DNA from: a virus
Virus record (IMG/VR): IMGVR_UViG_3300020182_000023
Span: 14,697-78,696 of that record
Reading direction: 5' to 3' (one strand)
DNA length: 64,000 nt
Shown here: positions 359-43,831 of the stretch, one piece after another
Numbering within the stretch: position 1 is the first letter of the stretch
Layout of the letters: each line of letters starts with the position of its first letter
Program-made: the position numbers and the translations under genes
The notes under the pieces: generated by a model
Databases searched by the model: none
What the model was told of the DNA's origin: nothing
The model's input: the letters and a program-made list of their open reading frames with translations, nothing else

Positions 359-3300
359 TTAAATAAAGCTTTTAATATATCTTAATGTAGAGCTAAATAC
401 TTTTACTAACGATGTAGCTGTATTATTGATTTTAGCAATGAAGTATGTGCCTATCATTAAGTCCCCTTGTGTAATAGGATTTGTTATGCCGCCAACAAGA
501 GGCGTATTCTCATCCATTAGTATGTTAGCCCATTGCCTTCCTTCTTTTTCCTCGAAATCTCCGTTGATTAAGCTAGTGCTTTGTCCTCTTTCGTTTGTTC
601 CGCTGTCCAAGTAGAAGTTAGTGTCTGTTGATTCTATCTCTAATGCCCTAGCGTTCTTTGTGTTAGTAGGCTCTGCGGCAAAAGGAATGGTGATATATGA
701 TTCGTGTTGAGCACCGTAAAAGTTTCCATAAGAGGAAACATTAGGGCTGTTATGTAAATAGAATTTGCCATCTTTACTAGAGCATAATCTACTTCTCGCA
801 CTACCGAATACATCGCCTTTGTAATCAAAGAAAGACATCCATTTATTATTCTTGGGGGAGTAATTAAGAACGTATTGCTGTCCTTGTATTACCTCTACGT
901 CAACAGCGGGATTGTATGTCCCCGAACTAGTTACGGTTGCTTGTATTGTAGTTCCACCGCCAAGCTTAGACCAATCTCCACTACTTACTGTTTCTGTTAC
1001 GAATGGCGCTGCTGTAAATGTTTTTAATACTATATCTTCACTTAGGTCAAGTTCCGTTACCTGTGCTTCTGTAAGCGTTATTACTACTGTTGTAGGTGGT
1101 GTGGTTACAACTGTTCCCGTTGATGTTGACTTATTGTTTATTGATAATATAAACGTATCAAACTCTTTATCGTAAACGCTTTGTATTACGGGTTTATTGA
1201 TTAACCTTTGAGAGCGTATAAGAACTTCATCAAAAAAGAATCTCATTCCAGCATCACTAATAGGTTTCACTTCTAATCCACTTGATATTAGTACTGTGTT
1301 TTTGCTTCTATCTACAAACATTGATGCTCCGCCAAAATAGGAAAGGCTCTCTGGATTGTCTGATATACCATAATCTGATACAGAATATCTAGGAGTTCCG
1401 AATACATCAGTAGTTTTGCCTACGAAATTATTACCGTCTAATGAGTTTATTTCCGTTCTACCCATTGGTAAAAGCCCCATCTTTCTGTCGAATAATACTT
1501 TTAGATATTCGTTTTCAGAAAATATCTTTCTTATAGTTCCGTATTCGTTCTTTAGTTCCCTAAAGTTTATATCGTAAAAGAAGCCTAATCCGTTTATGTT
1601 AGTGTTTTGTACTAACGGGTCGCTCCATCTTAATGTTGTTTTTAATTCTGGAAGCCTACTATCCTCTAATGCGACTAATGGTCTTTTTAAGCTAATAGAC
1701 CTAGAAGGCACTCTAATATCAGCGAACGGTACTTGTAGGAAAAATGCACCACCTACCGCAGTTCTCCCGCCAGATGGTATAGTTTTACTAGGAGGAAAGT
1801 TGTTAGCGTCATAATCTAAGAATGTGTAGCTTAAATACATATCACCTGTATCAGCGGGTTCATATACTAAATCCGCAGGGGGTGATATTACTTGGTTTTG
1901 GCTTGGTGCGTTAGGGTCGCCAAAACCCGAAAGGGTAGTTATTAATGAATCCAATCCTAAATGGGCTAAATCCCCATTAGCATCATACCCAATCTTACAA
2001 GGATACCCGTACTCTCTCCATAATGCGTTATTTGAATCTGTGCTTTTTTTGTAAACCTCTAAAATGTCTCTGACAGTTGGCTGTGTATTCCATTGACCGC
2101 TATTTATCTTAATATATTTCTTAAAGTTCATTTTATCCACAACAACAGATGCACCAGAACCGTCCCCCTCTACTATAAGCGTAGGAAATGAAGTATATCC
2201 ATTTCCCGAATTAGTTATAGTTACTGTTATTATTGAACCAGAGCCTATTGCAGTTGTAAAAGTCGCCCCACTACCACCTCCGCCAACAGCTTTTATTGTT
2301 GGGTTTGCAGTAAAGCCACTACCTCCGCTAATTATGGTAACGGATGCTATTTCTCCAGAGTCTAGCGTTTCAATAACCTTTGATTCATCGTAATGCGCCC
2401 AATAAGAAGATGCCGAGAAGTCGTAAACCCCTCTTACATAATATTCATCATTAAAGCTAAGAGGGAATTGGCTATCTTCGTTGTCATTATTAAATGTTCT
2501 TGGTATTTGTAGGCTTATTAATGACTGTCCGCCCGATGCTGCTGGCGTATCAACACCCGCCATAAATTGATAGGCTAAAGGTGTACTTCCCTCATAATCA
2601 ATCCCTATTGGTAAGTAACATGGTTGCCAAGTTTTAGCCCAAGATGGCGGTGCGTGACTTATTCTCATATTTAGGCTTACTATTACACTAGGGCTAGTTA
2701 CTATCGAATCGTACCAATCCGTCTCTACTTCTTGGTCAATATTCGTTAATACTGTAGAAAGCCTTCCCTTACCATCCGAGTATCTTATACCCCATTTGTA
2801 TTTAGCACCAGTTTTTAGTGTTTTTTGGTAACTCGCAGAAGGGGCTGTAGGTCTAGGTGCATAATATCTGTAAGATGAAATCATATCTAAATCTACGCTA
2901 CTAACATCTAGCCCCTCATCTATATCTCCAAATACTATTCTATTATCTTCTGTTATTGCTAATGTACCCGCTTTTTTAGGCACAAAAGAATATAGCTGAT
3001 TAGCCTCATTTTGGTCTAACGGAACTTTAGCTGAATTATTGTCGAATATTACTTCGTAGAATGACTCATATTGAACTCCACCACCCGTTACACCCCAATT
3101 ATCAGATGCTGTATTGAACTTTGTAAATGTATATTCGTTTGATGCGCTAATATCAGAGCCGTCTATATCAGCAAACTTATACCAATCTCCAGAGTTTCCA
3201 TTTCTACAATCTCTATACGCTACCTCTATCTTTTTTAATCTGTTTACTATTGCTGAATTTCTATACACCCTAAGTCTTAAACCGCCGTAAGATGTTGTTG

Positions 3301-4177
3301 GGTCTGCTAATACATTCTTGTTATAAGTATTCATTTCTGATATAGGCGACCAAGCACCATACATATCATCGTCAAATACCCATCTGTACTTAAACTGAAA
3401 ATACTTACCAAAAAGTGAGTTATTGCTTGTCCCAGTATTAGCCCCATTTATCAATATCTGATGTAATGGCTGTAACGGGCATAAATCAAAATACTCTGCT
3501 TGTAATGCAGTAGGGTATTCAGACCCAATTAATTTATCTACGTTAATATATTTAGGCTCGTTATGATTGTCAGTCCAAAACAATAACGTTTGACCATCTC
3601 TTATTAATATAGCTGAATCTATGTAATTATTCTCTTGAAAGTTTAAATAGTTGCCTATCTCCTTCCAAATTAATGAGTTTTTTTCGGGGTCTTTTTCTCC
3701 TGCATAACTAGCGGATGTAAACCCAACTAAACAAATATAATATTTAGTCTCTGAAGATATACCGCCAATTCTTAATACTACATCACCAGCGGTGTAAGAT
3801 GTTGCGTATGTAGGTGTAGCCCCGCCTAATGTACCTACTATTGAGTAAAAGTTATCTCTAACTAATTCTCTAAGAGTTTCATCTAAATAGCTATAATAAA
3901 GAATTATATGCTTCCCTTCGCTACTCCATAGGAATATATAAGTTCTTTGGTTTTCTTCGTCATCTTGTATCTTAACGCATTTATATCTACCACCAGACGG
4001 TAATGTATAACTTACTTCAAGTGTACTCTTTACATTTTCTAAGGCGTTATCATTCCCCCCATCAGTACTTGATACATAAAAGTTCTTAGCCTCTATGTAC
4101 TCACCTTCTTTTAGGTATCTAGGGTCGGAATCTTGGTTCATTCCAAGATAAAAAAAACGTCTATCTTCTTGTACCAT
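359..4177 (-). CDS. Tail stabilisation/muzzle protein, crAss-like podovirus type
   Basis: 1272 aa; N-terminal GMNQDSDPRYLKEGEY..A.N and LFWTDNHNEPKYIN, FKYRWVFDD..Y..WSP, YGISDNPES motifs typical of this family; follows the ring genes. Confidence 0.75.
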   Translation of the reverse strand: MVQEDRRFFYLGMNQDSDPRYLKEGEYIEAKNFYVSSTDGGNDNALENVKSTLEVSYTLPSGGRYKCVKIQDDEENQRTYIFLWSSEGKHIILYYSYLDETLRELVRDNFYSIVGTLGGATPTYATSYTAGDVVLRIGGISSETKYYICLVGFTSASYAGEKDPEKNSLIWKEIGNYLNFQENNYIDSAILIRDGQTLLFWTDNHNEPKYINVDKLIGSEYPTALQAEYFDLCPLQPLHQILINGANTGTSNNSLFGKYFQFKYRWVFDDDMYGAWSPISEMNTYNKNVLADPTTSYGGLRLRVYRNSAIVNRLKKIEVAYRDCRNGNSGDWYKFADIDGSDISASNEYTFTKFNTASDNWGVTGGGVQYESFYEVIFDNNSAKVPLDQNEANQLYSFVPKKAGTLAITEDNRIVFGDIDEGLDVSSVDLDMISSYRYYAPRPTAPSASYQKTLKTGAKYKWGIRYSDGKGRLSTVLTNIDQEVETDWYDSIVTSPSVIVSLNMRISHAPPSWAKTWQPCYLPIGIDYEGSTPLAYQFMAGVDTPAASGGQSLISLQIPRTFNNDNEDSQFPLSFNDEYYVRGVYDFSASSYWAHYDESKVIETLDSGEIASVTIISGGSGFTANPTIKAVGGGGSGATFTTAIGSGSIITVTITNSGNGYTSFPTLIVEGDGSGASVVVDKMNFKKYIKINSGQWNTQPTVRDILEVYKKSTDSNNALWREYGYPCKIGYDANGDLAHLGLDSLITTLSGFGDPNAPSQNQVISPPADLVYEPADTGDMYLSYTFLDYDANNFPPSKTIPSGGRTAVGGAFFLQVPFADIRVPSRSISLKRPLVALEDSRLPELKTTLRWSDPLVQNTNINGLGFFYDINFRELKNEYGTIRKIFSENEYLKVLFDRKMGLLPMGRTEINSLDGNNFVGKTTDVFGTPRYSVSDYGISDNPESLSYFGGASMFVDRSKNTVLISSGLEVKPISDAGMRFFFDEVLIRSQRLINKPVIQSVYDKEFDTFILSINNKSTSTGTVVTTPPTTVVITLTEAQVTELDLSEDIVLKTFTAAPFVTETVSSGDWSKLGGGTTIQATVTSSGTYNPAVDVEVIQGQQYVLNYSPKNNKWMSFFDYKGDVFGSARSRLCSSKDGKFYLHNSPNVSSYGNFYGAQHESYITIPFAAEPTNTKNARALEIESTDTNFYLDSGTNERGQSTSLINGDFEEKEGRQWANILMDENTPLVGGITNPITQGDLMIGTYFIAKINNTATSLVKVFSSTLRYIKSFI

Positions 4178-4941
4178 TAGCTTTTAGTAAATGCGCTGCT
4201 CTTTCTAGTCTGATTCATCATTTGGTTTTGCGTCATTGAACTGAATCTTTCAGCCATATGATAGCAAGCCCAAGTGAACTTATGCTCTAAATCTTGTATA
4301 ACACCTCTTGGTGTGCTTTTTCTTCTTCTCTTACTAAACAATTCTATACCCGCCTTAATAGGCTCCCTCATAAACTGATGAACTAGAAACTCTCCGTTTA
4401 TTGTAGATATATCTTGAAGGTATATTATCATATACTTGTCAGTAGTGTTTAAGCCTCCATTTACGTTGATAAATCCTCTTTCGTAGTCTATACTCCACTC
4501 ACCATAAACAACGTGTCCATTGCTACCGAAATTGCCTCCTAAGTTCTCTCCGTGTCTGCTTACAGATAGGCTGTTGTTTGAATCTCCGTAACCGTTTGAT
4601 TCAGCTAACCTTCCCGTAGAGGTTTGTCTTTCTGTATTGCCTTCACTATCAGTTCCTCTTGCGTTGGCGATTTTATTACCCAACCCTAATGAAATGAAGT
4701 GGTTTGCGCTATTTACAATTCCTAAGTCTATAATTCTTACGCAACCCGCAGGAATTACTATTTGGTCGTTAGAGTTTAACGTAACAAACTTACTTACAGG
4801 TATGCCCGTAAAATCATACTCCATCTCCCTTAATGCTTGTATGGCAAAGTCTAGGTAAAAAGATAAATCGTGTGTAGTCTTTTTGCCTTGCTCTCTAAGG
4901 TAGTCTTTTACTATGGATAATATGGGTAAGTCTCTATTCAT
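4177..4941 (-). CDS. Putative tail ring/adaptor protein
   Basis: 254 aa; position next to muzzle; size matches crAss-like ring proteins. Confidence 0.55.
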   Translation of the reverse strand: MNRDLPILSIVKDYLREQGKKTTHDLSFYLDFAIQALREMEYDFTGIPVSKFVTLNSNDQIVIPAGCVRIIDLGIVNSANHFISLGLGNKIANARGTDSEGNTERQTSTGRLAESNGYGDSNNSLSVSRHGENLGGNFGSNGHVVYGEWSIDYERGFINVNGGLNTTDKYMIIYLQDISTINGEFLVHQFMREPIKAGIELFSKRRRKSTPRGVIQDLEHKFTWACYHMAERFSSMTQNQMMNQTRKSSAFTKS

Positions 4942-5561
4942 TATGAATCTGCTAGGTTGTTATCGCTTAAATCTTCTGGAATGTCTTTTGTCAATACATA
5001 TTCTTGAACAGCCATATTAATTATATCCAACTCTAGGTTAGGCGGAAATGGAAAATAATCATCATCCGCTATATCTTCGCTGCTAGATATTGAGTGTACA
5101 TCTAATAATGTTTCTTCTGTCTGTTTTGCTGTAAAGTATATTCTATCTCCACTTAACCAATATCCCGTATTACCTTCTAACTCTTTTGAGGCAGAACCAT
5201 TAAATAAAGAATTAAATGTAGATGGCACTTGGTAGTATTCAAATGTGTTATTACAAGGTGTTATCTGATATATACCCATATTCTTAGGGAGTACTAACGG
5301 CTTAAATGGTAGCTGTAAATACCATCTGTTAGTTCTAGTGTCTTTTGTAGGGGATAATTGCTCATAAGTAGATATACAGCCTTCCCAAACCATATCTTCC
5401 ATTAAGTCATTACTCCACGCTTGCCAAGCGAAATCTGCAACAACTTTATCTCTAGCATTACCAACAGCAGCTACCATTTCCCTAAGAGATGTCTTAGCGT
5501 CTTGCGTTAGCTTTGGGTAAAGCTTCTTTAATGCTCTATATGCTAAATCTACTTTTGTCAT
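4941..5561 (-). CDS. Putative tail ring protein
   Basis: 206 aa; C-terminal FPFPPNLELDIINMAV pattern of ring/tail tubular proteins; translationally coupled. Confidence 0.55.
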   Translation of the reverse strand: MTKVDLAYRALKKLYPKLTQDAKTSLREMVAAVGNARDKVVADFAWQAWSNDLMEDMVWEGCISTYEQLSPTKDTRTNRWYLQLPFKPLVLPKNMGIYQITPCNNTFEYYQVPSTFNSLFNGSASKELEGNTGYWLSGDRIYFTAKQTEETLLDVHSISSSEDIADDDYFPFPPNLELDIINMAVQEYVLTKDIPEDLSDNNLADS

Positions 5562-6196
5562 TATTTGTAATTAACTAACGCTTCGTTTCCTATTGAGAAA
5601 CCAAAACGTCTAACTATACCTTGTACTATTCTTTCTGTATGCTGCTCTGGTATATCAAAATCAACCGATGTAGACGAATCGTACACTTCTCTACTAGATG
5701 ATACCGTGAAGCCCCAAATAGGGTCTAATGGAAGTCTGTAATAGCTGAGCTTAACGCTACTAAATACAGAGTAAGGTTTAATTTCTACCGTATCTGCATT
5801 AATAACTGCTATTGGATATGCTGTACTTGCTCTTGAGAAACCGCTAACTTCCGATGCGTCTGCTTCTGACTGACCCATCACTTGAAATTGAACTAGCTTA
5901 CTCTGTGTTTGATTAATGTAAACTCTACCCGTTATTGATTGCAATTGCATATAATCACTAGGCTTAGTTACTAAGTTGCTTGAGTTCGGAAAAAGATTAA
6001 CTGACACCTTTAATTCATCAGCTATGTCCATTGTTTGCTGTGAACTTTCAGACACACCTAGCACTTCATTATAAAAAGAAAGTTGTTCTAGCTTTGCGTA
6101 GTTATTAAAGTCGCTTGTCTTTATATAGCCTCCTGACTGATTCTTCTTTATAATCTCAAAGACTTGCGTCTTTACGGTATTTATATTTGCTCCCAA
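5561..6196 (-). CDS. Putative tail ring (tubular) protein
   Basis: 211 aa; KNQSGGYI...FN, YYRLP.DP.W and SVDFDIPE motifs of crAss-like ring proteins. Confidence 0.6.
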   Translation of the reverse strand: MGANINTVKTQVFEIIKKNQSGGYIKTSDFNNYAKLEQLSFYNEVLGVSESSQQTMDIADELKVSVNLFPNSSNLVTKPSDYMQLQSITGRVYINQTQSKLVQFQVMGQSEADASEVSGFSRASTAYPIAVINADTVEIKPYSVFSSVKLSYYRLPLDPIWGFTVSSSREVYDSSTSVDFDIPEQHTERIVQGIVRRFGFSIGNEALVNYK

Positions 6197-22083: not shown

Positions 22084-22302
22084 ATGGAATTTTCACTATT
22101 TTTAAACAACGGAGAACAAATAAATATAAACACAGAAGATTATACAGACCCTACTAGAACGGTTATGGAATACCTTATATCAATGCTAGAATATTATGAA
22201 ACAGAATTATCCTTCTGTGATGAAGAAAATGAATTACTGTATCAGCAAGTGGAATATTGTAAACTACTTACTGATTTGTTGAAGCCAGAGATAAAGAATT
22301 AA
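22084..22302 (+). CDS. Hypothetical acidic protein; stop codon overlaps attC-like site A
   Basis: 72 aa; its TAA is part of the TAAC. Confidence 0.55.
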   Translation: MEFSLFLNNGEQININTEDYTDPTRTVMEYLISMLEYYETELSFCDEENELLYQQVEYCKLLTDLLKPEIKN

Positions 22303-22348
22303 CACCAAGCTAAGAAGCGTTTTAATGCTTTCTTAGCGGCTGTTATGC
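22297..22348 (+). repeat. attC-like hairpin A (short type)
   Basis: TAAC-accaa-gctaagaagcgtt..aatgctttcttagc-ggct-GTTATGC. Confidence 0.65.
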
Positions 22349-22418
22349 AACGTTTTAATGTTGCAATTTTTAACCCTTATTAACATTAACCAATAGATAA
22401 TATTAATACATTTGAATT

Positions 22419-24024: not shown

Positions 24025-24255
24025 ATGAAAACAAAATTGATTAGAAACAGTACGCTCCAAGACTTAATGGATGCTGCGGAGTATTCTTCTTACTCAGAAA
24101 CACTAGAAGGTGTTAAACGGGCTAAAATAGGCTTAGATATATACGAGAAAGTAAAGGGTGGCTGGAAGCAAATCAGCGATTCGGGTATTATACCTAAGAA
24201 GTGTAACGTTATATCTCTTGATGCTAATGGCGCAAGCAGAATGAAGCGGAGGTAA
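24025..24255 (+). CDS. Hypothetical protein; stop overlaps attC-like site B
   Basis: 76 aa; TAA lies within TAAC. Confidence 0.5.
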   Translation: MKTKLIRNSTLQDLMDAAEYSSYSETLEGVKRAKIGLDIYEKVKGGWKQISDSGIIPKKCNVISLDANGASRMKRR

Positions 24256-24344
24256 CGGTTTGTGTATGAGTAGTGTGGCTTTGCTCTTATTTTCAACTTA
24301 CAGATAAACTTATTTAGCCACATTACTTATACACTTTTTTATAG
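24250..24344 (+). repeat. attC-like hairpin B (long type, degenerate 3' core)
   Basis: TAAC-ggttt-gtgtatgagtagtgtggct...agccacattacttatacac-tt-TTTATAGGTA (GTT expected). Confidence 0.55.
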
Positions 24345-24364
24345 GTATGTAAAATTTACGGAAT

Positions 24365-24511
24365 ATGAATAAAGAAAATAATTATTGGAAAGGAATAATG
24401 GTTGGATTTGCAGTAAGCACAATTGTTTGGTGTACTTTATGGGCATTTGTTATTGGAAAAATAGATAAGGTTCACAAACAAGAACTTGATTATATAATAG
24501 AAAAACACTAA
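24365..24511 (+). CDS. 48-aa membrane protein, cassette between sites B and C
   Basis: MNKENNYWKGIMVGFAVSTIVWCTLWAFVIGKIDKVHKQELDYIIEKH; flanks ttataggtatgtaaaatttac and gtaaattttattacctataa are near-complementary. Confidence 0.55.
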   Translation: MNKENNYWKGIMVGFAVSTIVWCTLWAFVIGKIDKVHKQELDYIIEKH

Positions 24512-24537
24512 ACAAAGTAGGTAGTAAATTTTATTAC

Positions 24538-24590
24538 CTATAACACCCGTCTAAGAAACGCTTTAATGTTTCTTTTGGCGGCTGTTAGAT
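24538..24590 (+). repeat. attC-like hairpin C (short type)
   Basis: ctaTAAC-acc-cgtctaagaaacg..tgtttcttttggcg-gct-GTTAGAT. Confidence 0.6.
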
Positions 24591-26581: not shown

Positions 26582-27679
26582 CTATTCTGCTTTATTACCG
26601 TGACCACCAATACCATTCTCTTTCTTGTATTTTGAAATCTTAATCGCTATGTTAGATTGGGATGTTCCTAACTTCTCTGCTATTTTCCATTGTGGCATTG
26701 TCTTATTCATTTCGTACAATTCTTTATAGTCGTATTTTCTGTTTCTTTTATCTAAGCCGTTAAGCCTAGCGCCAAATCTTTTTATAGCTGTTTCAACAGC
26801 CCCGTCACCACAATTATAATACTCAGTTAGCATTTTTAGCGTGTACCTCTTTTCTACTAAGCTTAAAAACTCATCTTTATCTGCTATACCATAGGGCTTA
26901 ACATAAATATCTTCACTTCTAAGCTCACCATACTTAATAATAATCCTTTTAACAGCACCAACACTAATCTGATACTTATCAGAAATAAACTCTATGCTAT
27001 TACCAGATTCGTAGGACTTAGAAAAAACCTTACCCCTACAATCTTTGTAGTTGATATTTCGAGTTATCCGTACAATAGTAGGAGGAGATACATTAAACAT
27101 ATCAGCTATTTCCGTATTACTAACCAACTCTTCAGAATAAAGCCTTTTAATTTCCCGCTGCTCATCATAGGAGAAATTAGTAAACTTATCCTTAATAACC
27201 CTATTACTCCTACCATCAAATACGCCTAGTTCAACCAACAGTGATTTAATAACAGCGCTTGATACATTATACTGATTAGCTATATAAGTTATAGGGTAAG
27301 ACTCATACATATCAACTATATTCTTCTTGTCAGAATCACTAAACGAATACTTAGTCCCAGATAAGTAACCAGCATCTTTCTGCCTTTTTCTATTTTCCTC
27401 TGGAGTAACCCACTCTAAGTTACTAGAGGCATTATTAAGCCTATTAAAGTCCTTATGGTCAACTTCGTGTCTATCGCTAGGAGGTAGCCCATTAAAAGCT
27501 AGACAAACAAGTCTATGTACATACTGAGAGTGCCTGCCCTTTTCATTATGCCTAACTCCAACGGATAAGTACTTACCACCCTTTAATTGAGGCTTTAGTA
27601 CATTACCTCTCTTCTTATTATAAACATTTCCTAATTCATCTACTTGGTACTTATCGTACATTGGTATATTCTTTTTCAT
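26582..27679 (-). CDS. HNH homing endonuclease with multiple C-terminal HTH repeats
   Basis: YQVDELGNV, YVHRLVCLAF, EVDHKDFNRLNNASSNLEWVT..EN, then repeated IA..YNVS HTHs. Confidence 0.8.
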   Translation of the reverse strand: MKKNIPMYDKYQVDELGNVYNKKRGNVLKPQLKGGKYLSVGVRHNEKGRHSQYVHRLVCLAFNGLPPSDRHEVDHKDFNRLNNASSNLEWVTPEENRKRQKDAGYLSGTKYSFSDSDKKNIVDMYESYPITYIANQYNVSSAVIKSLLVELGVFDGRSNRVIKDKFTNFSYDEQREIKRLYSEELVSNTEIADMFNVSPPTIVRITRNINYKDCRGKVFSKSYESGNSIEFISDKYQISVGAVKRIIIKYGELRSEDIYVKPYGIADKDEFLSLVEKRYTLKMLTEYYNCGDGAVETAIKRFGARLNGLDKRNRKYDYKELYEMNKTMPQWKIAEKLGTSQSNIAIKISKYKKENGIGGHGNKAE

Positions 27680-30469: not shown

Positions 30470-30537
30470 TATAATTTAACTTTTCAATACATAAACAATT
30501 ATATACATTTGAATTATTAATTTTAAAACAAAACAAA

Positions 30538-30888
30538 ATGAAAACAATTAAAGAATTTTTAGGAACACTTACAACAGAATTAGACCTTCAATATAATTAT
30601 CAAGATGATATGACCTTTGGAGAATTTGAAGAGGCTATTGATACCTATATTAGAGAATCAAGCGATGTTATTTACTACTCTAAAGCGATGGAGTTTTTAC
30701 AGGAACATGACCCTAGTTTGAGAGAAAGTTTAGGGCTTGCATCGGATTTAGGATATGACCCTAGCGACTTAAATAGCGAAATTTTAGCCACGCTATTAAA
30801 CCAACAGAAACTATTTGAAGAGTGGAGCGAATTATCCAGCGAAATAGAAGAGTATTTTGATGAATATAAAAAATACCTTGAATTATAA
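30538..30888 (+). CDS. Ocr-like acidic DNA-mimic (anti-restriction) candidate
   Basis: 116 aa, very D/E-rich, helical, VIYYSKAMEFL core, acidic aromatic C-terminus, early region. Confidence 0.45.
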   Translation: MKTIKEFLGTLTTELDLQYNYQDDMTFGEFEEAIDTYIRESSDVIYYSKAMEFLQEHDPSLRESLGLASDLGYDPSDLNSEILATLLNQQKLFEEWSELSSEIEEYFDEYKKYLEL

Positions 30889-30914
30889 GGGGAGAAGGAA
30901 GAAATTTAAAACTT

Positions 30915-31508
30915 TTGTTTTGTTTATATCCGTCTAACATTGGGATGTTCTGTCCCTTTGTTTTAGGCGGGGAATTAACAAGGCAAGTAAATAAAATAAA
31001 GATTATGAAAACAAATATTAGAATATCAACAGACTATTACGGTCAAGGCGCATACAACGAATTTAGAGACGAAATAAACTACTTAGTCAATGAATGTATT
31101 GAATGTTATTGCGAAGTAAAAAACAATTCGCTTGTTAATCAAGTTGAAGAAGAAAAAAACTACATGACCTACAAAGGGCAGTTTAAAAACAAAACTATCG
31201 TGGAGGCGAAGGGATACTCTCAAGGAAACTGGCAAACATACACTTTGCATCATAACCTAGATGAAAATAACGATGATTTAATGCGCTTAGTTGATGAGCT
31301 TGAAAAAAGCTTTACGCATATGAACGACTACACGGTCGAAAAGTTTGAAAGCGAAGAAATAAATGGCAAAGTATTCAATGCAGAACCACACGACTACACA
31401 AACTTTTCAATAAGGCACATTGAGTTTCCTGATGAAGATGACGTATTGAAGGAATATTTAGAAATATATGGAAAAGATTTTGACGAATGTATAACTGATT
31501 TAAAATGA
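30915..31508 (+). CDS. Early acidic protein (true start probably about 31005)
   Basis: GYSQGNW motif; acidic. Confidence 0.55.
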   Translation: MFCLYPSNIGMFCPFVLGGELTRQVNKIKIMKTNIRISTDYYGQGAYNEFRDEINYLVNECIECYCEVKNNSLVNQVEEEKNYMTYKGQFKNKTIVEAKGYSQGNWQTYTLHHNLDENNDDLMRLVDELEKSFTHMNDYTVEKFESEEINGKVFNAEPHDYTNFSIRHIEFPDEDDVLKEYLEIYGKDFDECITDLK

Positions 31509-31786
31509 AAGCAAGAATTACTAAACACGGTCAACACTTAAACGGTTGGTATATATACCTAGAAAATTGTGATGATTGGTTAAATTATAATCCTCACTTC
31601 GGAAAGGAATTTAATGTGTATTCCAGCGATGGAATTATTTACATAGAGAAACCATTTTTAAATTTTTCAGGAACATTAAGGAAACTATCAAAAAAAGGAA
31701 GGTTTTATTTAACATCAGACGAATTAGAAGAAGGAATATATACAATAATAGAAATTGACAGCGAAACACTAGAAATAGATTTATGA
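31505..31786 (+). CDS. Hypothetical protein
   Basis: 93 aa coupled ORF. Confidence 0.55.
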   Translation: MKARITKHGQHLNGWYIYLENCDDWLNYNPHFGKEFNVYSSDGIIYIEKPFLNFSGTLRKLSKKGRFYLTSDELEEGIYTIIEIDSETLEIDL

Positions 31787-31860
31787 AAACATTTAACAGA
31801 CTAAGCATATTAACATTTATTATTTTGGTAGGTGGATTTATTGCAATAAGTTTGTGTTTG

Positions 31861-31881
31861 TTATAACGTTGAGTGTAGTGC
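31861..31881 (+). repeat. Collapsed attC-like remnant D
   Basis: taTAACGTTgagtgtagtgc: stop-overlapping TAAC fused to a GTT..gtgtagtgc near-complementary to gcattacac..aac at 32186-32199. Confidence 0.35.
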
Positions 31882-31909
31882 GGATTATTAACAAATAAAT
31901 TTAATTGAA

Positions 31910-32186
31910 ATGGCTGAAATTAATTATAGTAAAGAGAATTGTTGGAGAATAAAATACATTCCCAATAGATTGCACTAAAGAAAAAAATAGACATGGTGAT
32001 TGGCGAATTGTAGTACCCAAAATGGCAATGAGTTATGACGTTTTTATTGATATAGAAACATCTATTACACACATGGAAAGTTATGGTATTAGATACAATT
32101 ACATAGAGGGTGTCGCTAGTATGAATGTAACGGATAAAGGACTAAAAGAATTACAAGAAATGACTGACGTTATACGCATAGTTTAG
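31910..32186 (+). pseudogene. Disrupted cassette ORF
   Basis: The ATG frame stops after 22 codons; a long open frame NTFPIDCTKEKNRHGDWR...IRIV* lacks an in-frame start at its 5' end. Confidence 0.4.
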
Positions 32187-32192
32187 CATTAC

Positions 32193-32288
32193 ACAAAACG
32201 GGTAGGTATATGATTAGTGTGCGATTGCACTAACCTTTGAATTAAAACAAATATTAACTAAGCACATTAACTATATACATTGTTAGGG
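32193..32288 (+). repeat. attC-like hairpin E (long type)
   Basis: acaaAAC-gggtag-gtatatgattagtgtgc...gcacattaactatatac-att-GTTAGGG. Confidence 0.6.
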
Positions 32289-32308
32289 TGCGTTTAAATT
32301 AAATTATT

Positions 32309-32512
32309 ATGACTTACGAAGACTTTTTATTCTCACAATTATTTATGAACCACGTTGAGAATAACGAAACACAATATCAAGAACTTGAATATGACTTGAT
32401 ATTCCCCGAAGTATTAAAGCACCAAAATCTATTCTTAAAATCTAATTACAATTTAGACGTTTGTAGCGAATACGATTGCATAGTAAACTACCTTCTTAAT
32501 GAAGTGAAGTAA
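32309..32512 (+). CDS. Cassette-borne hypothetical protein
   Basis: 67 aa; cassette starts GTTAGGGT and ends ACCCTAAC. Confidence 0.6.
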   Translation: MTYEDFLFSQLFMNHVENNETQYQELEYDLIFPEVLKHQNLFLKSNYNLDVCSEYDCIVNYLLNEVK

Positions 32513-32516
32513 TGAA

Positions 32517-32610
32517 CCCTAACGTTTAGTATAAGATTAGTGCGCTAAACTATAAACTTTGAATTAAGCACTAACATAACCAAGCGCATTAATTTTATAC
32601 ATTGTTATGC
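32517..32610 (+). repeat. attC-like hairpin F (long type)
   Basis: CCCTAAC-gttta-gtataagattagtgcgct...agcgcattaattttatac-att-GTTATGC. Confidence 0.75.
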
Positions 32611-32628
32611 GCTTTTAATTAAATTATT

Positions 32629-32814
32629 ATGGACTACAAATTAATTGACAACATTGAAGTAGATGGAATAGACACTAAAGACTATCCAGATTTTTGTGAC
32701 GCATTTATAGCAAGTGCGAAATATAATGGAAAACCAATGACTGACGAGCAATTAGATGAATTAAATGAGGATGGCGGATTTGTTTATAAATGTGTGGAAA
32801 ATCATTTGTTCTAA
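32629..32814 (+). CDS. Cassette-borne small acidic protein (DGID..DYPDFCDAFI family)
   Basis: 61 aa; cassette starts GTTATGCGC and ends GCGCATAAC. Confidence 0.65.
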   Translation: MDYKLIDNIEVDGIDTKDYPDFCDAFIASAKYNGKPMTDEQLDELNEDGGFVYKCVENHLF

Positions 32815-32818
32815 TTGC

Positions 32819-32911
32819 GCATAACACCAAGCTAAGAAACGTAAAGCGCAGCACAATGTTTAATCTTAGCACAATACTATATTGCTTTATGGTGTATAGG
32901 TTGTGTTAGCA
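32819..32911 (+). repeat. attC-like hairpin G (hybrid)
   Basis: GCATAAC-accaagctaagaaacgtaaagcg (same left arm as site J)...GTTAGCA. Confidence 0.6.
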
Positions 32912-32988
32912 AATCGTTTAATTATGAATTTACAAGCAACAGATATATTATTAGCAGTATTTAAAGCAATAGCAATTACATTTTACAT

Positions 32989-33458: not shown

Positions 33459-33944
33459 ATGGCTGATAGAACACACGGAATGTCTAGCACTAGGGAATAC
33501 AAGGTATGGAAGACTATAAAAGATAGGTGCTATGGAATTAATAGCGATTGCTATGACAGATACGGAGGCAGAGGTATAGTTATGCAGTATAATTGGATTA
33601 ACAACTACATAGAATACTATAATTATGCAAGTAAGATAGATGGATTCTCAGACCCTAATAAATCAATAGATAGAATAGATTCTAATGGAAACTACGAAGA
33701 GGGTAATATTAAATTCTCTACCCCTAGTCAACAATGCGCTAATAGAAGGCTATTCAAGAACTCTAAATCAGGCTACACTGGCGTAGTTAAAAAAGGAAAG
33801 AAATACGAGGCTACCATAAGCGTTAACGGTAAAAGGATATATATAGGAAGGCATAAAGACCCTAAAGTATTGGCTATAATGAGAGACGAATATATAATCA
33901 AAAACAATCTTACCGAGTACCCACTTCAAATTTTAAATAGATGA
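33459..33944 (+). CDS. HNH-AP2 homing endonuclease
   Basis: THGMS.TREY..W..IK.RC, YGGRGI, SIDRIDSNGNYE.GN, SGYTGV...Y.ATI...GKRIYIG (AP2). Confidence 0.8.
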   Translation: MADRTHGMSSTREYKVWKTIKDRCYGINSDCYDRYGGRGIVMQYNWINNYIEYYNYASKIDGFSDPNKSIDRIDSNGNYEEGNIKFSTPSQQCANRRLFKNSKSGYTGVVKKGKKYEATISVNGKRIYIGRHKDPKVLAIMRDEYIIKNNLTEYPLQILNR

Positions 33945-36845: not shown

Positions 36846-37448
36846 ATGAAGAATTTAGCTAAAGCGGTACTAGCCGTAATGAAAGACGTTAAGGGCGTTG
36901 AAAAGAGTATGACTGTTGGTAGCGGAAACTACTCTTATAAAGGGGTATCGGACTACGAGGTAAAGAAGATTTACAATAAGTCTATGGCGGCTAATGGGCT
37001 GTGTATTTTGCCTATTGGAATAGTAGACGATGTAGATATTAATAGATATGAAGACCAATACGGTAAGCAGAAAATGAATGTGTTTACTAGGGTTACTTCT
37101 ACATATCTTTTACTACACGAAAGCGGGGAATCTCAAGAGTTGGTAGGTTACGGTCACGGAGTAGATACGGGAGATAAAGCAGCGGGAAAGGCTACTACAT
37201 ACGCAATGAAGTACGCTTTATTATACACATTTATGACTCCTACGGGCGCAATAGATGATTCCGATACAACCCATTCAAATGACCACGAAGCACCCGTTGT
37301 TGCACCTAAGAAAGAAGCGTTAACAGAATCTCACCCACGCTATGAAGGGGCAAAGAAAGCGTTAAGCGAAGGTAAAACTACATTAGAAGTAATTAAACAA
37401 ACATTCACCGTAAGTAAAGCGGTAGAAAAACTATTAACAAGTAAATAA
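36846..37448 (+). CDS. ERF-family ssDNA annealing protein
   Basis: LLHESGES, G.D.GDKAAGKATTYAMKYALL..F.....DD.D. Confidence 0.85.
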   Translation: MKNLAKAVLAVMKDVKGVEKSMTVGSGNYSYKGVSDYEVKKIYNKSMAANGLCILPIGIVDDVDINRYEDQYGKQKMNVFTRVTSTYLLLHESGESQELVGYGHGVDTGDKAAGKATTYAMKYALLYTFMTPTGAIDDSDTTHSNDHEAPVVAPKKEALTESHPRYEGAKKALSEGKTTLEVIKQTFTVSKAVEKLLTSK

Positions 37449-37449
37449 A

Positions 37450-37983
37450 ATGGAAGAATGGAGGGATGTTTCGGGGTATGATGGCAGGTATCAAGTTAGT
37501 AATTTAGGTAGAGTAAAGAGTCTTGATATGATTATAAATAATAGGCATAATAGTACATCTAAAAAGAAAGGAAGGATATTAAAACAGCAACCTAACAAGA
37601 AGGGTTATCTTCAGGTAAGATTATGCTACAAAAAAACACATAAAAGCTGTAGGGTGCATAGATTAATTACTGAAGCTTTTATCCCTAATCCAGAGAATAA
37701 GCCTCAAGTAAACCATATAAATGGAGTTAAGGATGATAATAGGGTTGAAAATTTAGAATGGTGTACAAATAAGGAAAATCAAATACACGCAACAAAAAAT
37801 GGGCTATTTAATCCTAATTTTGGAGAAGAGCATCATATGTCTAAGTTGACAAATAATCAAGCCAAGCACATTAGGCTACTTAAATCAAGAGGTTTTACGC
37901 TAAATAAATTATCTAAAAAATACAAACTGTCAATGACAGCGATAAGCAACATAGTAAATAATAAAACTTATATAAATATCTAA
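37450..37983 (+). CDS. NUMOD4-HNH homing endonuclease
   Basis: EEWRDVSGYDGRYQVSNLGRVKS, VHRL..EAFIPNPENKPQVNHINGVKDDNRVENLEW. Confidence 0.9.
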   Translation: MEEWRDVSGYDGRYQVSNLGRVKSLDMIINNRHNSTSKKKGRILKQQPNKKGYLQVRLCYKKTHKSCRVHRLITEAFIPNPENKPQVNHINGVKDDNRVENLEWCTNKENQIHATKNGLFNPNFGEEHHMSKLTNNQAKHIRLLKSRGFTLNKLSKKYKLSMTAISNIVNNKTYINI

Positions 37984-39407: not shown

Positions 39408-39467
39408 ATATAACACCAAGCTAAGAAACGTAAAGCGAAGCGTATGTTTCCTTAGCGACTGTTAACG
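39408..39467 (+). repeat. attC-like hairpin J (short type)
   Basis: ataTAAC-accaa-gctaagaaacgta..tatgtttccttagc-gact-GTTAACG. Confidence 0.65.
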
Positions 39468-39507
39468 CACGTTTTAATGTGCGGAATATTAAAAACTTAA
39501 AAATACA

Positions 39508-40610: not shown

Positions 40611-40979
40611 ATGGATTTTATAGGTAAGTATTGGTTAGATTACTATAAAATAAGACACTCTAAGCCATTTTATAACGGCTCTTTAAAGGTGGGTTATCCA
40701 ATAAACATAAAAGACATAATAAACAGCGACCTAAAACGGGTTATTCCAGAATCATTAGGAATATACCACTTATTTAAAGATGGTGAGTTAGTTTATATAG
40801 GTATGAGTAAGTGTATAAAAAAAAGAATATCAGAACATTACGATAATAATGACATTGACTTTAATGAGGTATTATGGTTCTGCGCTGAAATTGCAAATAA
40901 AAACATAAAAGATATATTTAGAATAGAGAGGCTAATGATTATAAAGCATAAACCTAAATTTAATACAGCATACCTATAA
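40611..40979 (+). CDS. GIY-YIG nuclease
   Basis: GIYHL...LVYIGMS..IKKRI.EH...IE..MI.KHKPKFN. Confidence 0.8.
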   Translation: MDFIGKYWLDYYKIRHSKPFYNGSLKVGYPINIKDIINSDLKRVIPESLGIYHLFKDGELVYIGMSKCIKKRISEHYDNNDIDFNEVLWFCAEIANKNIKDIFRIERLMIIKHKPKFNTAYL

Positions 40980-42019: not shown

Positions 42020-42070
42020 CATATAGTTTCAGTAGAATAAGTTCGTTTCATAATTGCCCTAGTGGATGGT
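42016..42070 (+). pseudogene. 5' remnant of the PD-(D/E)XK exonuclease gene
   Basis: MTYSFSRISSFHNCPSGW parallels MKETIYSWSRVNYTCLAAW of the gene at 42962. Confidence 0.55.
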
Positions 42071-42092
42071 TTATTTTTATTTATATTTGTAT

Positions 42093-42173
42093 AGTAGAGT
42101 TACGGCTACTTTTAAATATTTTTACAAAGCCCTGTCAAGAGTAGAGTCCGTAACCTCGAAATTGATGGGGTTT
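42093..42173 (+). ncRNA. Putative kissing-loop leader RNA, copy 3
   Basis: agtag-aGTTACGG-ctact; aagccctgtcaa.AGTA-gag-tCCGTAAC-ctc-GAA.ttgatggggttt; after TATATTTG (42082-42089). Confidence 0.6.
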
Positions 42174-42179
42174 ATTTTT

Positions 42180-42965
42180 ATGCAAGAGTTTACAAAAGAA
42201 GAATTAAAAAACGAAGAGTGGAGAGATGTAGTTGGATACGAAGGATTGTATCTGGTTAGTGATTTAGGGAGAGTAAAAAGCAGTTACATTGTTAGTAGGG
42301 CTAAAGATGGAATCATTAAAATGGGGAGCGATAAGAATGGGTATTGCAGTTTCGCTTTATGGAAAGACAAATCACAAATTACCAAGAATGGACATCGTGT
42401 AGTCGCTAAAGCATTTTTACCTAATCCAAAAAACAAACCGTGCGTGAATCATATAGATGGTGATAAAAGGAATAATCGAACAACCAACCTAGAATGGGTT
42501 ACATATAAAGAAAATTCCCGACACGCGATTGAAACTGGTCTGTATAGACACCCTGAAATGAAGAAGGGGTACGACTCGCCACACAGTAAAGAGGTGTATC
42601 AGCTTACGGTAGAGGGTGTTTTTATAAAAGCGTTTGGTTCATCTATCGAGGCGGCTATAAGTTTATTTGGAGATATTAATAGAGGCTCTATTATACGCAA
42701 ATGCTGTAGAGATAAATCAAGTTCTTATAAGGGTTTTCTATGGAGATACCCTAAAGACGTTAATAAAGATGCGATTTCAAAACATAAAAGAATAATACAA
42801 CAGTTTTCTTTAGAGGGGATTCTTATTAAAGAGTATACTGGTACTAGTGCAGCCCAAAAAGCCACTGGAGTCTTGGCTACTGGTATAGGGAACAATGCAA
42901 ACGGGAGGACAAATACCGCTGGGGGGTTTGTCTGGAAATATAAATATGATTACAATTCAATATGA
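42180..42965 (+). CDS. NUMOD4-HNH-NUMOD1 homing endonuclease (start revised from 42066)
   Basis: EEWRDVVGYEGLYLVSDLGRVKS, HRVVAKAFLPNP..KPCVNHIDGDKRNN...NLEW, two NUMOD1-like repeats. Confidence 0.85.
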   Translation: MQEFTKEELKNEEWRDVVGYEGLYLVSDLGRVKSSYIVSRAKDGIIKMGSDKNGYCSFALWKDKSQITKNGHRVVAKAFLPNPKNKPCVNHIDGDKRNNRTTNLEWVTYKENSRHAIETGLYRHPEMKKGYDSPHSKEVYQLTVEGVFIKAFGSSIEAAISLFGDINRGSIIRKCCRDKSSSYKGFLWRYPKDVNKDAISKHKRIIQQFSLEGILIKEYTGTSAAQKATGVLATGIGNNANGRTNTAGGFVWKYKYDYNSI

Positions 42966-43831
42966 AAGAAACAATATATTCTTGGAGTAGGGTTAACTAT
43001 ACTTGTTTAGCCGCTTGGTATCAAAATTATGTACTAGAAAAGAAGGGTGAGGACAACATCTGGAATGTCGGAGGTTTATTCGAGCATAACCTAATGGAAC
43101 ACGCAGCTAAAGGCGCAATGACACAAGAGGATTGCCTAGAAGCTGTTAAGAATACTTGGTACGATGCTGTTGATGGATTAGACAACCCATTTGGGTACTA
43201 CGGTAAAGAAGGTAATTACATTGAAGCCGCTGAACATTACTACAACAAAACACTTCCGTTCTTCACTAAGGAGAATACTAATTGGTTATTAGGTAAAACA
43301 GTTTCAGTAGAAGAGCATTTAGAATTTACCCTTCCTTCGGGCAAAAAATTTCAAGGCTTTGTAGATAGAGTAAGTGTTGATAGTGATGGAAAGAGCAACC
43401 TAGCCATCAGAGATTATAAAATAAGCAAACGCTTTACAAGAAAAAACGTAAAAGAAAAGGCTAGACAGCTATACATTTACGCTTATGGCTATCATCAGAA
43501 ACACGGAGTATATCCAGAGCAATTAGTTTTTGAGTTCTTTCAATTTTGGGACAAACCAAAGGTTATTAAGTTCAAGAAAACTGATATGGATGAGGCTATT
43601 GAGTTTGCTGAAAGTAGAATAAGAGAGATTGAAGGTAGATTAAAGGTAGAGAGAATGGGTATGAAGGGAATGTTTAACCCTGACTATAAAGAACTATTAG
43701 ATGATAACGGAGAGCGTAATATGTTCTGTAAGTCTGTCTGTGGGTATCGTAATGTCTGTCCTTTCATAGACGGAAACCACCTCAAAATGTTTAAAACAAA
43801 AGAGTTACAAGATATAGAAATAAAAAAATAG
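42962..43831 (+). CDS. PD-(D/E)XK exonuclease (RecB/Cas4-like)
   Basis: YSWSR, G...H, E..L, GFVDRV, IRDYK, QLYIYA, C-terminal C...C.Y...C. Confidence 0.8.
   Translation: MKETIYSWSRVNYTCLAAWYQNYVLEKKGEDNIWNVGGLFEHNLMEHAAKGAMTQEDCLEAVKNTWYDAVDGLDNPFGYYGKEGNYIEAAEHYYNKTLPFFTKENTNWLLGKTVSVEEHLEFTLPSGKKFQGFVDRVSVDSDGKSNLAIRDYKISKRFTRKNVKEKARQLYIYAYGYHQKHGVYPEQLVFEFFQFWDKPKVIKFKKTDMDEAIEFAESRIREIEGRLKVERMGMKGMFNPDYKELLDDNGERNMFCKSVCGYRNVCPFIDGNHLKMFKTKELQDIEIKK

Follow-up and report, generated by a model that had tools for sequence, protein, structure and literature searches.

Introduction

Clusters of attC sites without an integrase gene (CALINs) have been described in phages by Qi et al. (2023, Front Microbiol, PMC9892861), who reported 17 of them, virulent phages included. 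In that study the integrase IntI1 recombined five of six tested attC sites of virulent phages, the bottom strand better than the top, and one of the two tested sites of Polaribacter phage P12002L, whose sites had been called by the standard attC detectors (the IntegronFinder covariance model/HattCI). Here we analyse a tandem array of small gene cassettes separated by conserved hairpins, located around positions 32,193 to 32,911 of a 64,000-nucleotide stretch of viral DNA ("the window"; bases 14697-78696 of the 78.7-kb IMG/VR virus record IMGVR_UViG_3300020182_000023, estimated to be 74% complete). The array is most probably one of integron-type gene cassettes, moved at folded recombination sites.

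Canonical integrons were reported to be almost absent from Bacteroidetes. In the chromosomes of gut Bacteroidales, the rAID-1 clusters (Ross et al. 2019, bioRxiv 10.1101/471110 / Nature) consist, according to the parts of that report cited here, of an XerD-like tyrosine recombinase followed by co-directional low-GC genes, which are separated by repetitive intergenic sequences "reminiscent of integrons"; membership was defined there by an identity of 44% or more with the recombinase of B. fragilis. These same parts deal with chromosomes and not with phages, and do not analyse site structure, end complementarity or strand. A 2025 preprint on rAID contains nothing on the mechanism of the sites. 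In T4-type phages, the promoter-plus-terminator motifs named PeSLs (Arbiol et al. 2010; Comeau et al. 2014) are, in the portions of the two reports used here, said to be exchanged by homologous recombination and thought to mediate modular shuffling.

Attachment-site clusters in phages are thus already known, and the array in the window is an added member of a published phenomenon. Like the phage CALINs of PMC9892861, it consists of attC-type sites and small cassettes in a lytic phage genome without an integrase gene. It counts as a CALIN itself, with three sites in 740 nt (32184-32921), more elsewhere in the window, and a record without a tyrosine recombinase; the sites were called by our own covariance model and not by IntegronFinder. 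With classical, sedentary chromosomal integrons such as the Vibrio cholerae array it shares imperfect palindromes bounded by AAC and GTT of which one strand folds, a predicted exchange point at the 5' base of that strand, cassette ends that are complementary through a split R box, site types common to many unrelated promoter-less open reading frames (ORFs), and hybrid sites within the array. The study of phage CALINs treats the sites as canonical attC, makes no link to an Xer-like recombinase or to chromosomal arrays of Flavobacteriaceae, and does not note that the ORFs stand on the folding strand; the family described below, in at least 50 viral contigs, far exceeds the 17 CALINs listed there.

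Results and discussion

Complementary ends of the cassettes

The initial annotation had reported that the two ends of each cassette are exactly complementary, and direct reading of the letters confirmed it. Cassette 1, with the ORF at 32309-32512, is bounded by GTTAGGGT (32282-32289) and ACCCTAAC (32516-32523), exact reverse complements over 8 nt, and cassette 2, with the ORF at 32629-32814, by GTTATGCGC (32604-32612) and GCGCATAAC (32817-32825), exact over 9 nt. Hereafter the upstream member of a pair, which begins with GTT, is called the C box and the downstream member, which ends in AAC, the D box (Table 1). The complementarity belongs to the cassette and not to the hairpin, as had also been claimed: the flanks of the first hairpin, E1 (ACACAAAAC...GTTAGGGT), and of the second, E2 (ACCCTAAC...GTTATGCGC), are non-complementary outside AAC and GTT. 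A third single-gene cassette is found elsewhere in the window, with TTATAGGTA (24339-24347) and TACCTATAA (24535-24543) around the ORF 24365-24511; its site carries T in place of the G of GTT. When each unit was circularised in silico, the check that had been proposed, its D box and its own hairpin closed the site fully. The closed site of cassette 2 was calculated at -18.4 kcal/mol, as against -11.2 kcal/mol for the hybrid site present in the array, and that of cassette 1 at -14.3 against -11.0 kcal/mol (DNA parameters).

Could such ends be chance matches in AT-rich DNA? Counted without constraint, 8-mer pairs of the form GTT.../...AAC within 2.5 kb are indeed as frequent as in shuffled sequence (95 observed vs 91 +/- 11 in Markov shuffles). 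Since this count is at chance level, any significance lies in position, that is after the GTT of a hairpin on one side and at the ORF stop, before the next AAC, on the other, and the unconstrained statistic was dropped in favour of positional tests. Given GTT and AAC, 5 and 6 more letters match at fixed places in the two cassettes, for which our own estimate is roughly 1e-3 and 2e-4. For the whole family, the C box was defined as 14 nt from the G of GTT, and its reverse complement was sought within 1200 nt downstream. An exact complement of at least 8 nt (mostly 9-10) was present in 39 of 75 units from other viral contigs, as compared with about 5% when C boxes were permuted between loci. The D box always ended in AAC, was located mostly in the stretch from 9 nt ahead of the stop codon of the first ORF to 16 nt beyond it, and was usually followed by another AAC...GTT hairpin.

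The flanking rule also applies to Tenacibaculum phage Gundel_1, in different letters (GTTGTACGC ahead of its ORF61 and GCGTACAAC after the stop of this gene). Some end pairs recur, namely GTTGTGTGCC/GGCACACAAC, GTTATGCGC/GCGCATAAC and GTTGTACGC/GCGTACAAC; 33 well-formed units contain 32 unrelated ORF families, and one end pair may be common to as many as 7 of them. The fixed positions beside conserved hairpins, the permutation controls and the recurrence of matched ends in Gundel_1 and in the bacterial arrays described below already refute a chance origin, which we regard as practically untenable.

Structure and folding strand of the sites

Both intergenic regions of the array, and a 91-nt intergenic element of Gundel_1 that was the sole DNA match when the 2-kb region was compared with isolated phages by blastn, are copies of one element of about 95 nt, called E. 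When viral contigs were searched with an 18-nt pattern taken from its 3' arm, 117 stretches were returned, about 60 of them with the whole element; at least 50 viral contigs contain the hairpin family. We aligned 38 distinct copies (alignment A1) and built a covariance model (R1) from phage copies only. In each site an unpaired spacer sets off AAC, at the foot, from the 18-bp stem, which encloses a variable loop; GTT completes the site. AAC and GTT were present in 37 of the 38 aligned sites, and the outer letters (GTTATGC, GTTGTGT, GTTAGGG) fit RYYY/RRRY loosely. An asymmetric internal loop, with 5-7 nt on one side and 3 nt on the other, separates AAC/GTT from the long stem.

The long stem was 98% paired in A1, with 6 pairs changed on both sides, and its covariation score was not reached by any of 500 shuffles. 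It includes two invariant G.T pairs, and its cells contained 80 G.T combinations vs 5 A.C, which indicates that the + (sense) strand is the folding strand. The scores with R1 were accordingly asymmetric: 85.2 bits on the + strand vs 26.4 on the - strand for E1, which is a member of A1, and 113.5 vs 34.9 bits for E2, which has the 18-bp stem with both conserved G.T pairs. The 3' part of the hairpin was nearly invariant over 18 nt. The sites differ from those of classical integrons in an R box of 9-14 bp instead of 7 and in the inverted phage ORFs; no bulged (extrahelical) bases were identified in the 18-bp stem. By eye, none of the 38 aligned sites forms a perfect hairpin through its own flanks, and half of the units have perfect cassette ends. 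We therefore rejected the idea that the hairpin is a mobile palindromic element inserted between genes.

A small hairpin within the element, S1 (A1 columns 18-23 with 39-45), also covaries, with 4 pairs changed on both sides and 92% pairing. It is located at 32200-32245 and 32524-32550 of the window, with stems such as GGTAGG...CCTACC and GTTTAG...CTAAAC, and the stem sequences GGTTGG/CCAACC were seen by eye also in chromosomal copies from Hwangdonia.

The architecture of the family is repeated in phage P12002L. Other intergenic sites of this phage have AAC, a spacer, a GTATA...TATAC stem, GTT, chain-complementary flanks and TTTTAAT loops, and are weak matches to R1. The recombination of one of its two tested attC sites by IntI1 (PMC9892861) speaks for the claim of the initial annotation that the hairpins are recombination sites rather than terminators.

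Homologous arrays in chromosomes of Flavobacteriaceae

The 18-nt pattern also matched genomes of Flavobacteriaceae, among them Formosa, Winogradskyella, Hwangdonia, Mesonia and Tenacibaculum. The bacterial elements are closed by the same stem, conserved G.T position included, and are longer inside. With the phage-built model R1, the Hwangdonia sites scored 60-73 bits (E 1e-9 to 1e-12) and the sites of Formosa and Winogradskyella 25-43 bits. In four of the five genomes examined (Formosa, Winogradskyella sediminis, Hwangdonia and the Flavobacteriaceae genome G005) the sites cluster, in the same layout, beside a tyrosine recombinase of 375-400 amino acids (aa); in Formosa, they extend over 1661279-1683648 and the recombinase gene is at 1685041-1685850. 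The bacterial sites are chained in the same way as the phage sites: the letters after GTT complement those before the next AAC over 9-14 nt, often with G.T at position 11, a rule that held, by eye, in most of the consecutive sites compared. The chromosomal cassette arrays reach about 25 kb (locus G001 C1, 1656000-1687500).

The arrays of Formosa, Winogradskyella and Hwangdonia have the layout of rAID-1 as given in the cited parts of that report, namely a 5' XerD-like recombinase, at least two co-directional genes after it and repeats between the genes. One Formosa cassette encodes a CdiI_3 immunity protein.

In the bacterial loci examined, the strand bearing the G.T pairs is antisense to the flanking genes, and thus corresponds in bacteria to the classical attC bottom strand. 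The ORFs stand on the folding strand in phages and on the other strand in bacteria. Because each hairpin of the window belongs to the downstream ORF on the + strand (see below), it is the - strand that shows the canonical cassette orientation, and the phage ORFs run inverted with respect to bacterial cassettes, which corrects the earlier reading of the array.

Since the folding strand is the sense strand in phages, it could be asked whether the elements act as RNA. The hairpins would then be processing, stability or termination signals of a polycistronic early transcript, and pairing of C and D boxes would loop each cistron, for instance for RNase III cleavage or for coupling of termination and re-initiation, with selection on the mRNA keeping the ends matched. 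The mismatches are compatible with G.U pairing, and covariation is seen in both of two helices, S1 and S3, that exclude each other, a pattern known from RNA switches. The stop codon overlaps or adjoins the D box, and the start codon comes about 25 nt after the C box. The hairpins are, moreover, probably transcribed, because the cassettes have no promoter box of their own and are downstream of the box at 31847, the only TAnnTTTG box in the vicinity (Table 1). Judged by its sequence, this box is a candidate common promoter for the promoter-less cassettes; as in integrons, a single promoter probably serves them all by read-through. Against an RNA function, the homologous bacterial sites are antisense to the genes, so that the folded strand is not in the mRNA there; they cluster by a tyrosine recombinase, and the S1 stems are found among the chromosomal copies as well. 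Selection on RNA alone is also insufficient to place the same flanks around 32 unrelated ORF families with sharp junctions at AAC. No T-tract terminators were predicted in the region (0), and an Rfam scan of window positions 19000-43000 and of eight bacterial loci returned no relevant family. We consider a purely RNA-based function unlikely; the elements could conceivably have a dual role, as a DNA site with an additional effect in RNA.

Borders of the probable mobile unit

Variation in the hairpin core, its 5' half included, was correlated with variation in the C box some 80 nt away (r 0.45, Mantel p 0.0005), but showed no correlation with the D box of the preceding unit right next to it (r 0.04, p 0.24). 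This places a break in linkage between AAC and the hairpin. As read from these correlations, the unit is composed of hairpin, C box, ORF and D box, and the hairpin travels with the downstream ORF.

Comparison with relatives led to the same borders. Had the cassettes moved, it was argued in the initial annotation, the same ORFs should be found elsewhere with their own end pair and with changed neighbours, and this is what the search returned. In loci L120 and L123, a homologue of the ORF 32309-32512 has the same hairpin subtype and end pair, with other DNA on both sides; similarity to the window begins right after the upstream AAC and ends right after the downstream AAC, and the boundaries of unit 1 were set by this comparison together with the linkage test. 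Locus L131 contains cassette unit 2 with other neighbours. The 60-kb contig L130, 90-95% identical in the array region, is without 31874-32577 and continues with unrelated DNA from 32826; on reading both sequences, the two units between AAC 31866-68 and AAC 32521-23 are missing and E2 is internally deleted. The metagenome evidence comes from Logan contigs rather than raw reads, and neither runs with small shares nor RNA runs form part of it. Contigs from runs X5 and X10 follow the window as far as 32825 and are unlike it beyond, and run X5 contains both the window form and a form that skips from 31870 to 32578. The junctions are at or directly after AAC, where the triplet common to both sides blurs the position of the single bond.

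Other relatives have altered sites. Locus L122 has another hairpin subtype before the homologue of the ORF 32309-32512, and its C box has one mismatch; L129 and L132 keep the D box only. In L124, around 1700-1740, the homologue of the same ORF is followed by TAATGCACC|GTTAATTT, and a single deletion between short repeats seems to have taken out the D box along with the whole hairpin and C box that came next. For the cassette 2 ORF, 106 related loci were counted among viral contigs (L129-L208 belong here), the majority without a cassette context. Only the closest relatives of the 61-aa cassette 2 protein are cassette-borne, and this family may show how a resident phage gene turns into a cassette.

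These altered sites bring to mind a further explanation, in which the repeats are modules similar to PeSLs, shuffled by homologous recombination through the ERF protein and the PD-(D/E)XK exonuclease of the phage, and the matched ends are a by-product of arrays with formerly perfect hairpins of one type. The phage encodes both proteins, and the near-invariant 18-nt 3' part of the hairpin could serve as homology; the different subtype before the same ORF in L122 and the deletions spanning hairpins in L124 and L129 would fit as well. PeSLs, in the cited portions of the reports, offer a published phage precedent for modular shuffling (PMC2839356, PMC4122927), and share with the present sites the form of repeated, structured intergenic modules beside small accessory ORFs in plastic regions. 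As described there, however, they combine in one repeat an early promoter consensus with a terminator stem-loop, a combination that the repeats here do not have. No TAnnTTTG box was found inside sites or cassettes, and sigma-70-like matches in the region were no commoner than in shuffles; on the same two grounds we rejected a promoter inside the hairpin. Unlike PeSLs as given in these portions, the present sites also lack a T-tract, and they have sharp junctions at AAC, complementarity internal to the cassette and recombinase-associated homologues in bacteria, the last of which shuffling by homology leaves unexplained. Besides, a crossover inside the hairpin would tie its 5' half to the preceding D box, and the opposite was seen; nor are there hairpins perfect through their own flanks from which the perfect ends of half of the units could derive. 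PeSL-like shuffling thus appears very unlikely as the origin of the array.

The sharp junctions at AAC, the linkage of core and C box, the lack of T-tracts and the homologous arrays adjoining a recombinase all favour recombination sites, and bear out the initial annotation on this point as well.

The recombinase and a possible mechanism

The recombinase of the host arrays scored 215-218 bits with NF040815 (XerA/integron integrase) and about 185-189 bits with the XerC/XerD models. With the integron integrase model TIGR02249 it reached 197-209 bits (two proteins scanned), below the cut-off of 265, and the match was in two pieces (positions 2-179 and 239-315) that skip positions 180-238, which we take to be the expected location of the IntI-specific insertion. 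It differs from the integrase of classical integrons also by about 100 extra N-terminal residues. The motifs of catalytic type, RHS..TH and YTH, were invariant in the recombinase alignment. Of 81 Flavobacteriaceae genomes sampled, roughly 50 had matches spanning the extra N-terminal region, in many cases at the end of a contig. The enzyme is likely Xer-like and not IntI, and no IntI integrase with its specific additional domain was found beside an array, as a complete integron would require. Two loci with homologues are listed in Table 1.

A phage may also have its own enzyme. The 78-kb viral contig L359 (IMGVR_UViG_3300037325_000137) has, within 850-5864, a clean array with at least six E-family sites, cassette end pairs of 9-13 nt and, 1.9 kb downstream, a co-directional gene for an Xer-like recombinase (5055-5864). 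A scan of viral contigs with the Formosa recombinase alone had returned nothing, and it was the alignment-based scan that found this viral recombinase. L359 and the phage of the window have one gene in common (58% identity). If the arrays are lined up by the orientation of their sites, phage and bacteria agree in the side on which the recombinase gene stands, and the genes and the recombinase are flipped together.

A scheme may be proposed in which a unit is excised as a circle, and its D box, hairpin and C box would thereby form a single site with full pairing. Within the array, a site is a hybrid that combines the D box of the previous unit with its own hairpin and C box. The point of exchange would be at AAC, the 5' foot of the folded + strand hairpin. 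Exchange at the 5' foot of a folded strand is the established geometry of the bottom strand of integron attC sites. The units would be moved by a tyrosine recombinase acting on folded single-stranded DNA. As this record and Gundel_1 encode no recombinase, both phages would depend on an enzyme from the host or from a co-infecting phage. The initial annotation had described the matched ends as the footprint of integron cassettes that were once circles; the integron-type reading is supported by our results, whereas the circles belong to the proposed scheme.

The attribution to integron-type cassettes stands on the anatomy of the sites, their covariation and strand asymmetry, the positions of junctions, the cassette-scale differences between relatives and the homology to bacterial arrays. 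Several observations weigh against it. All the support is comparative, and no circular intermediate or recombination event was observed. A six-frame search with PF00589 found no tyrosine recombinase in this record, within its estimated 74% completeness, and nothing in the complete genome of Gundel_1. The host recombinase does not match the integron integrase model at positions 180-238, and its enzymology may for this reason differ from that of IntI. Exact end pairs are present in only about half of the units, and homologues of both ORFs below about 80% identity stand in plain operons without sites. The small hairpin S1 covaries, excludes the long stem and plays no part in an attC-type model. 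Finally, the decayed sites in L129, L130 and L132 and the swap of hairpin subtype before the same ORF in L122 imply that these regions are shaped by homologous recombination too, within the invariant 3' arm, and by deletions that span hairpins.

Two other enzymatic routes, single-strand transposition of the IS200/IS605 kind and nicking by an HUH Rep protein at TTTTAAT loops, were considered and dropped: no such enzyme was found, and the bacterial homologues stand beside a tyrosine recombinase.

The array and the early region of the phage

The source of the window is a marine flavobacterial phage, and the array sits in its early-gene region. The G+C content is 35%, and the nearest relatives of a 652-aa primase/helicase-like protein are in phages of Flavobacteriia. 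Positions 19000-43000 form a block, mostly on the + strand, of small early genes with replication and recombination functions (ERF, DUF3127, HNH/NUMOD4 endonucleases, a PD-(D/E)XK nuclease, a DnaA-like protein with a helix-turn-helix, HTH). Pfam scans of 20 larger ORFs matched ERF, three HNH/NUMOD4 proteins, PD-(D/E)XK, a GIY-YIG-like protein, DUF3127 and HTH proteins, and no recombinase, HUH protein or transposase. The cassette ORFs had no Pfam match, and the only PHROG match among them was phrog_28889, of unknown function.

Table 1. Positions of the array features in the window and of associated genes; loci outside the window are named in the position column
Feature	Position	Strand	Remarks
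E-family site elsewhere in the window	24241-24352	+	R1 58.6 bits, E 1.7e-9; precedes cassette ORF 24365-24511
Endonuclease-type ORFs of the early region (as a set)	26582-27679 (-), 37450-37983 (+), 42066-42965 (+), 33459-33944 (+), 40611-40979 (+)		
Bacteroidota-type -7 promoter box (candidate), TAAGTTTG (TAnnTTTG)	31847-31854	+	sole such box on + strand in 30504-32984
Degenerate/collapsed site	31861-31893	+	GTTATAAC, then hairpin remnant GTTGAGTGTAGTGCGGATTATTAAC
AAC	31866-31868	+	left junction of the two units missing in L130
ORF of preceding unit (31869-32199), 54 aa	32022-32186	+	no Pfam/PHROG match
attC-like site E1	32184-32297	+	AAC 32197-32199, ~82-nt hairpin core, GTT 32282-32284, C box GTTAGGGT
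Cassette unit 1, 324 nt	32200-32523	+	hairpin E1, C box, 5' leader, ORF, D box ending in AAC
Cassette 1 ORF, 67 aa	32309-32512	+	seven homologous loci in viral contigs
Cassette 1 D box, ACCCTAAC	32516-32523	+	complement of 32282-32289; doubles as 5' base of E2
attC-like site E2	32508-32618	+	AAC 32521-32523, GTT 32604-32606, C box GTTATGCGC 32604-32612
Cassette unit 2, 302 nt	32524-32825	+	hairpin E2, C box, leader, ORF, D box
Cassette 2 ORF, 61 aa, acidic	32629-32814	+	phrog_28889 (unknown function)
Cassette 2 D box, GCGCATAAC	32817-32825	+	exact complement of 32604-32612
Third site, composite	32810-32921	+	second-family hairpin nested in/recombined with remains of another hairpin
ERF annealing protein	36846-37448		Pfam scan
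PD-(D/E)XK nuclease/exonuclease	42962-43831		Pfam scan
Xer-like recombinase homologue, locus L331	1159-2331	-	
Xer-like recombinase homologue, locus L330	1159-2364	+	

The unit preceding cassette 1 ends in ACACAAAAC (32191-32199), and no matched C box was found for it. The third site of the array is composite: a hairpin of a second family (AAC-ACCAAGCTAAGAAAC...GTTTAATCTTAGC, with further copies at 22300, 24538 and 39408) is nested in, or recombined with, what is left of another (...GGTGTATAGGTTGT-GTTAGC). Its R1 score is 21.5 bits (E 0.2), and metagenome run X5 contains a variant with an intact alternative 5' arm. The second family (AAC-ACC-AAGCTAAGAAxCG ... GTT) is found in the window at 22300-22365, 24538-24590 and 39408-39475. 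Together with small hairpins that follow it, it has a conserved loop, (G)TTTTAAT, on covarying stems (TGCAAC/GTTGCA, CGCAC/GTGCG). The same loop is present in the P12002L sites (L422, 29974-30077) and may be a recognition loop for a protein. About 20 nt upstream of an ATG stands the motif GTAGTRCGGATTATTAAC (window 31880-31897). Contigs L016, L082, L102 and L049 have it too, behind the GTT of other sites, where it forms an alternative leader.

The load of free-standing endonucleases in the early region is unusually high. Three HNH+NUMOD4 homing-endonuclease genes are among them, one of which is on the opposite strand and carries several HTH domains; the GIY-YIG-like ORF is within the region too. 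A 161-aa ORF without a Pfam match is a candidate for an AP2-type endonuclease, by its look to the eye only.

Significance

Phage early regions are rich in small, fast-changing genes whose exchange is poorly understood; at the present locus the units of exchange and their borders can be read. In the searches made, we did not find in print the family-wide picture, the homology to Xer-associated arrays of the host, the inverted cargo, or the evidence from junctions and linkage. The site family ties phage genomes to recombinase-associated arrays that most of the sampled Flavobacteriaceae genomes contain, and points to a gene pool which abundant marine bacteria share with their viruses. Two observations published separately are brought together by it as well, the attC clusters of virulent phages and the XerD-associated "integron-like" arrays of Bacteroidales. 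If this link is true, cultured pairs exist (Gundel_1 and its host, or P12002L) for the question of integron-type single-strand recombination by an Xer-like enzyme.

Tentatively, and as a possibility towards which we do not yet lean, marine Flavobacteriaceae and their phages may have one integron-like system in common, with an Xer-type enzyme without the IntI insertion, inverted sites in the phages, and lytic phages that borrow the enzyme. Such a system, if real, would have been missed by integron finders and would be a main route of early-region plasticity in these phages; the phage of the window and Gundel_1 would gain, lose and reorder their early accessory genes with a borrowed enzyme.

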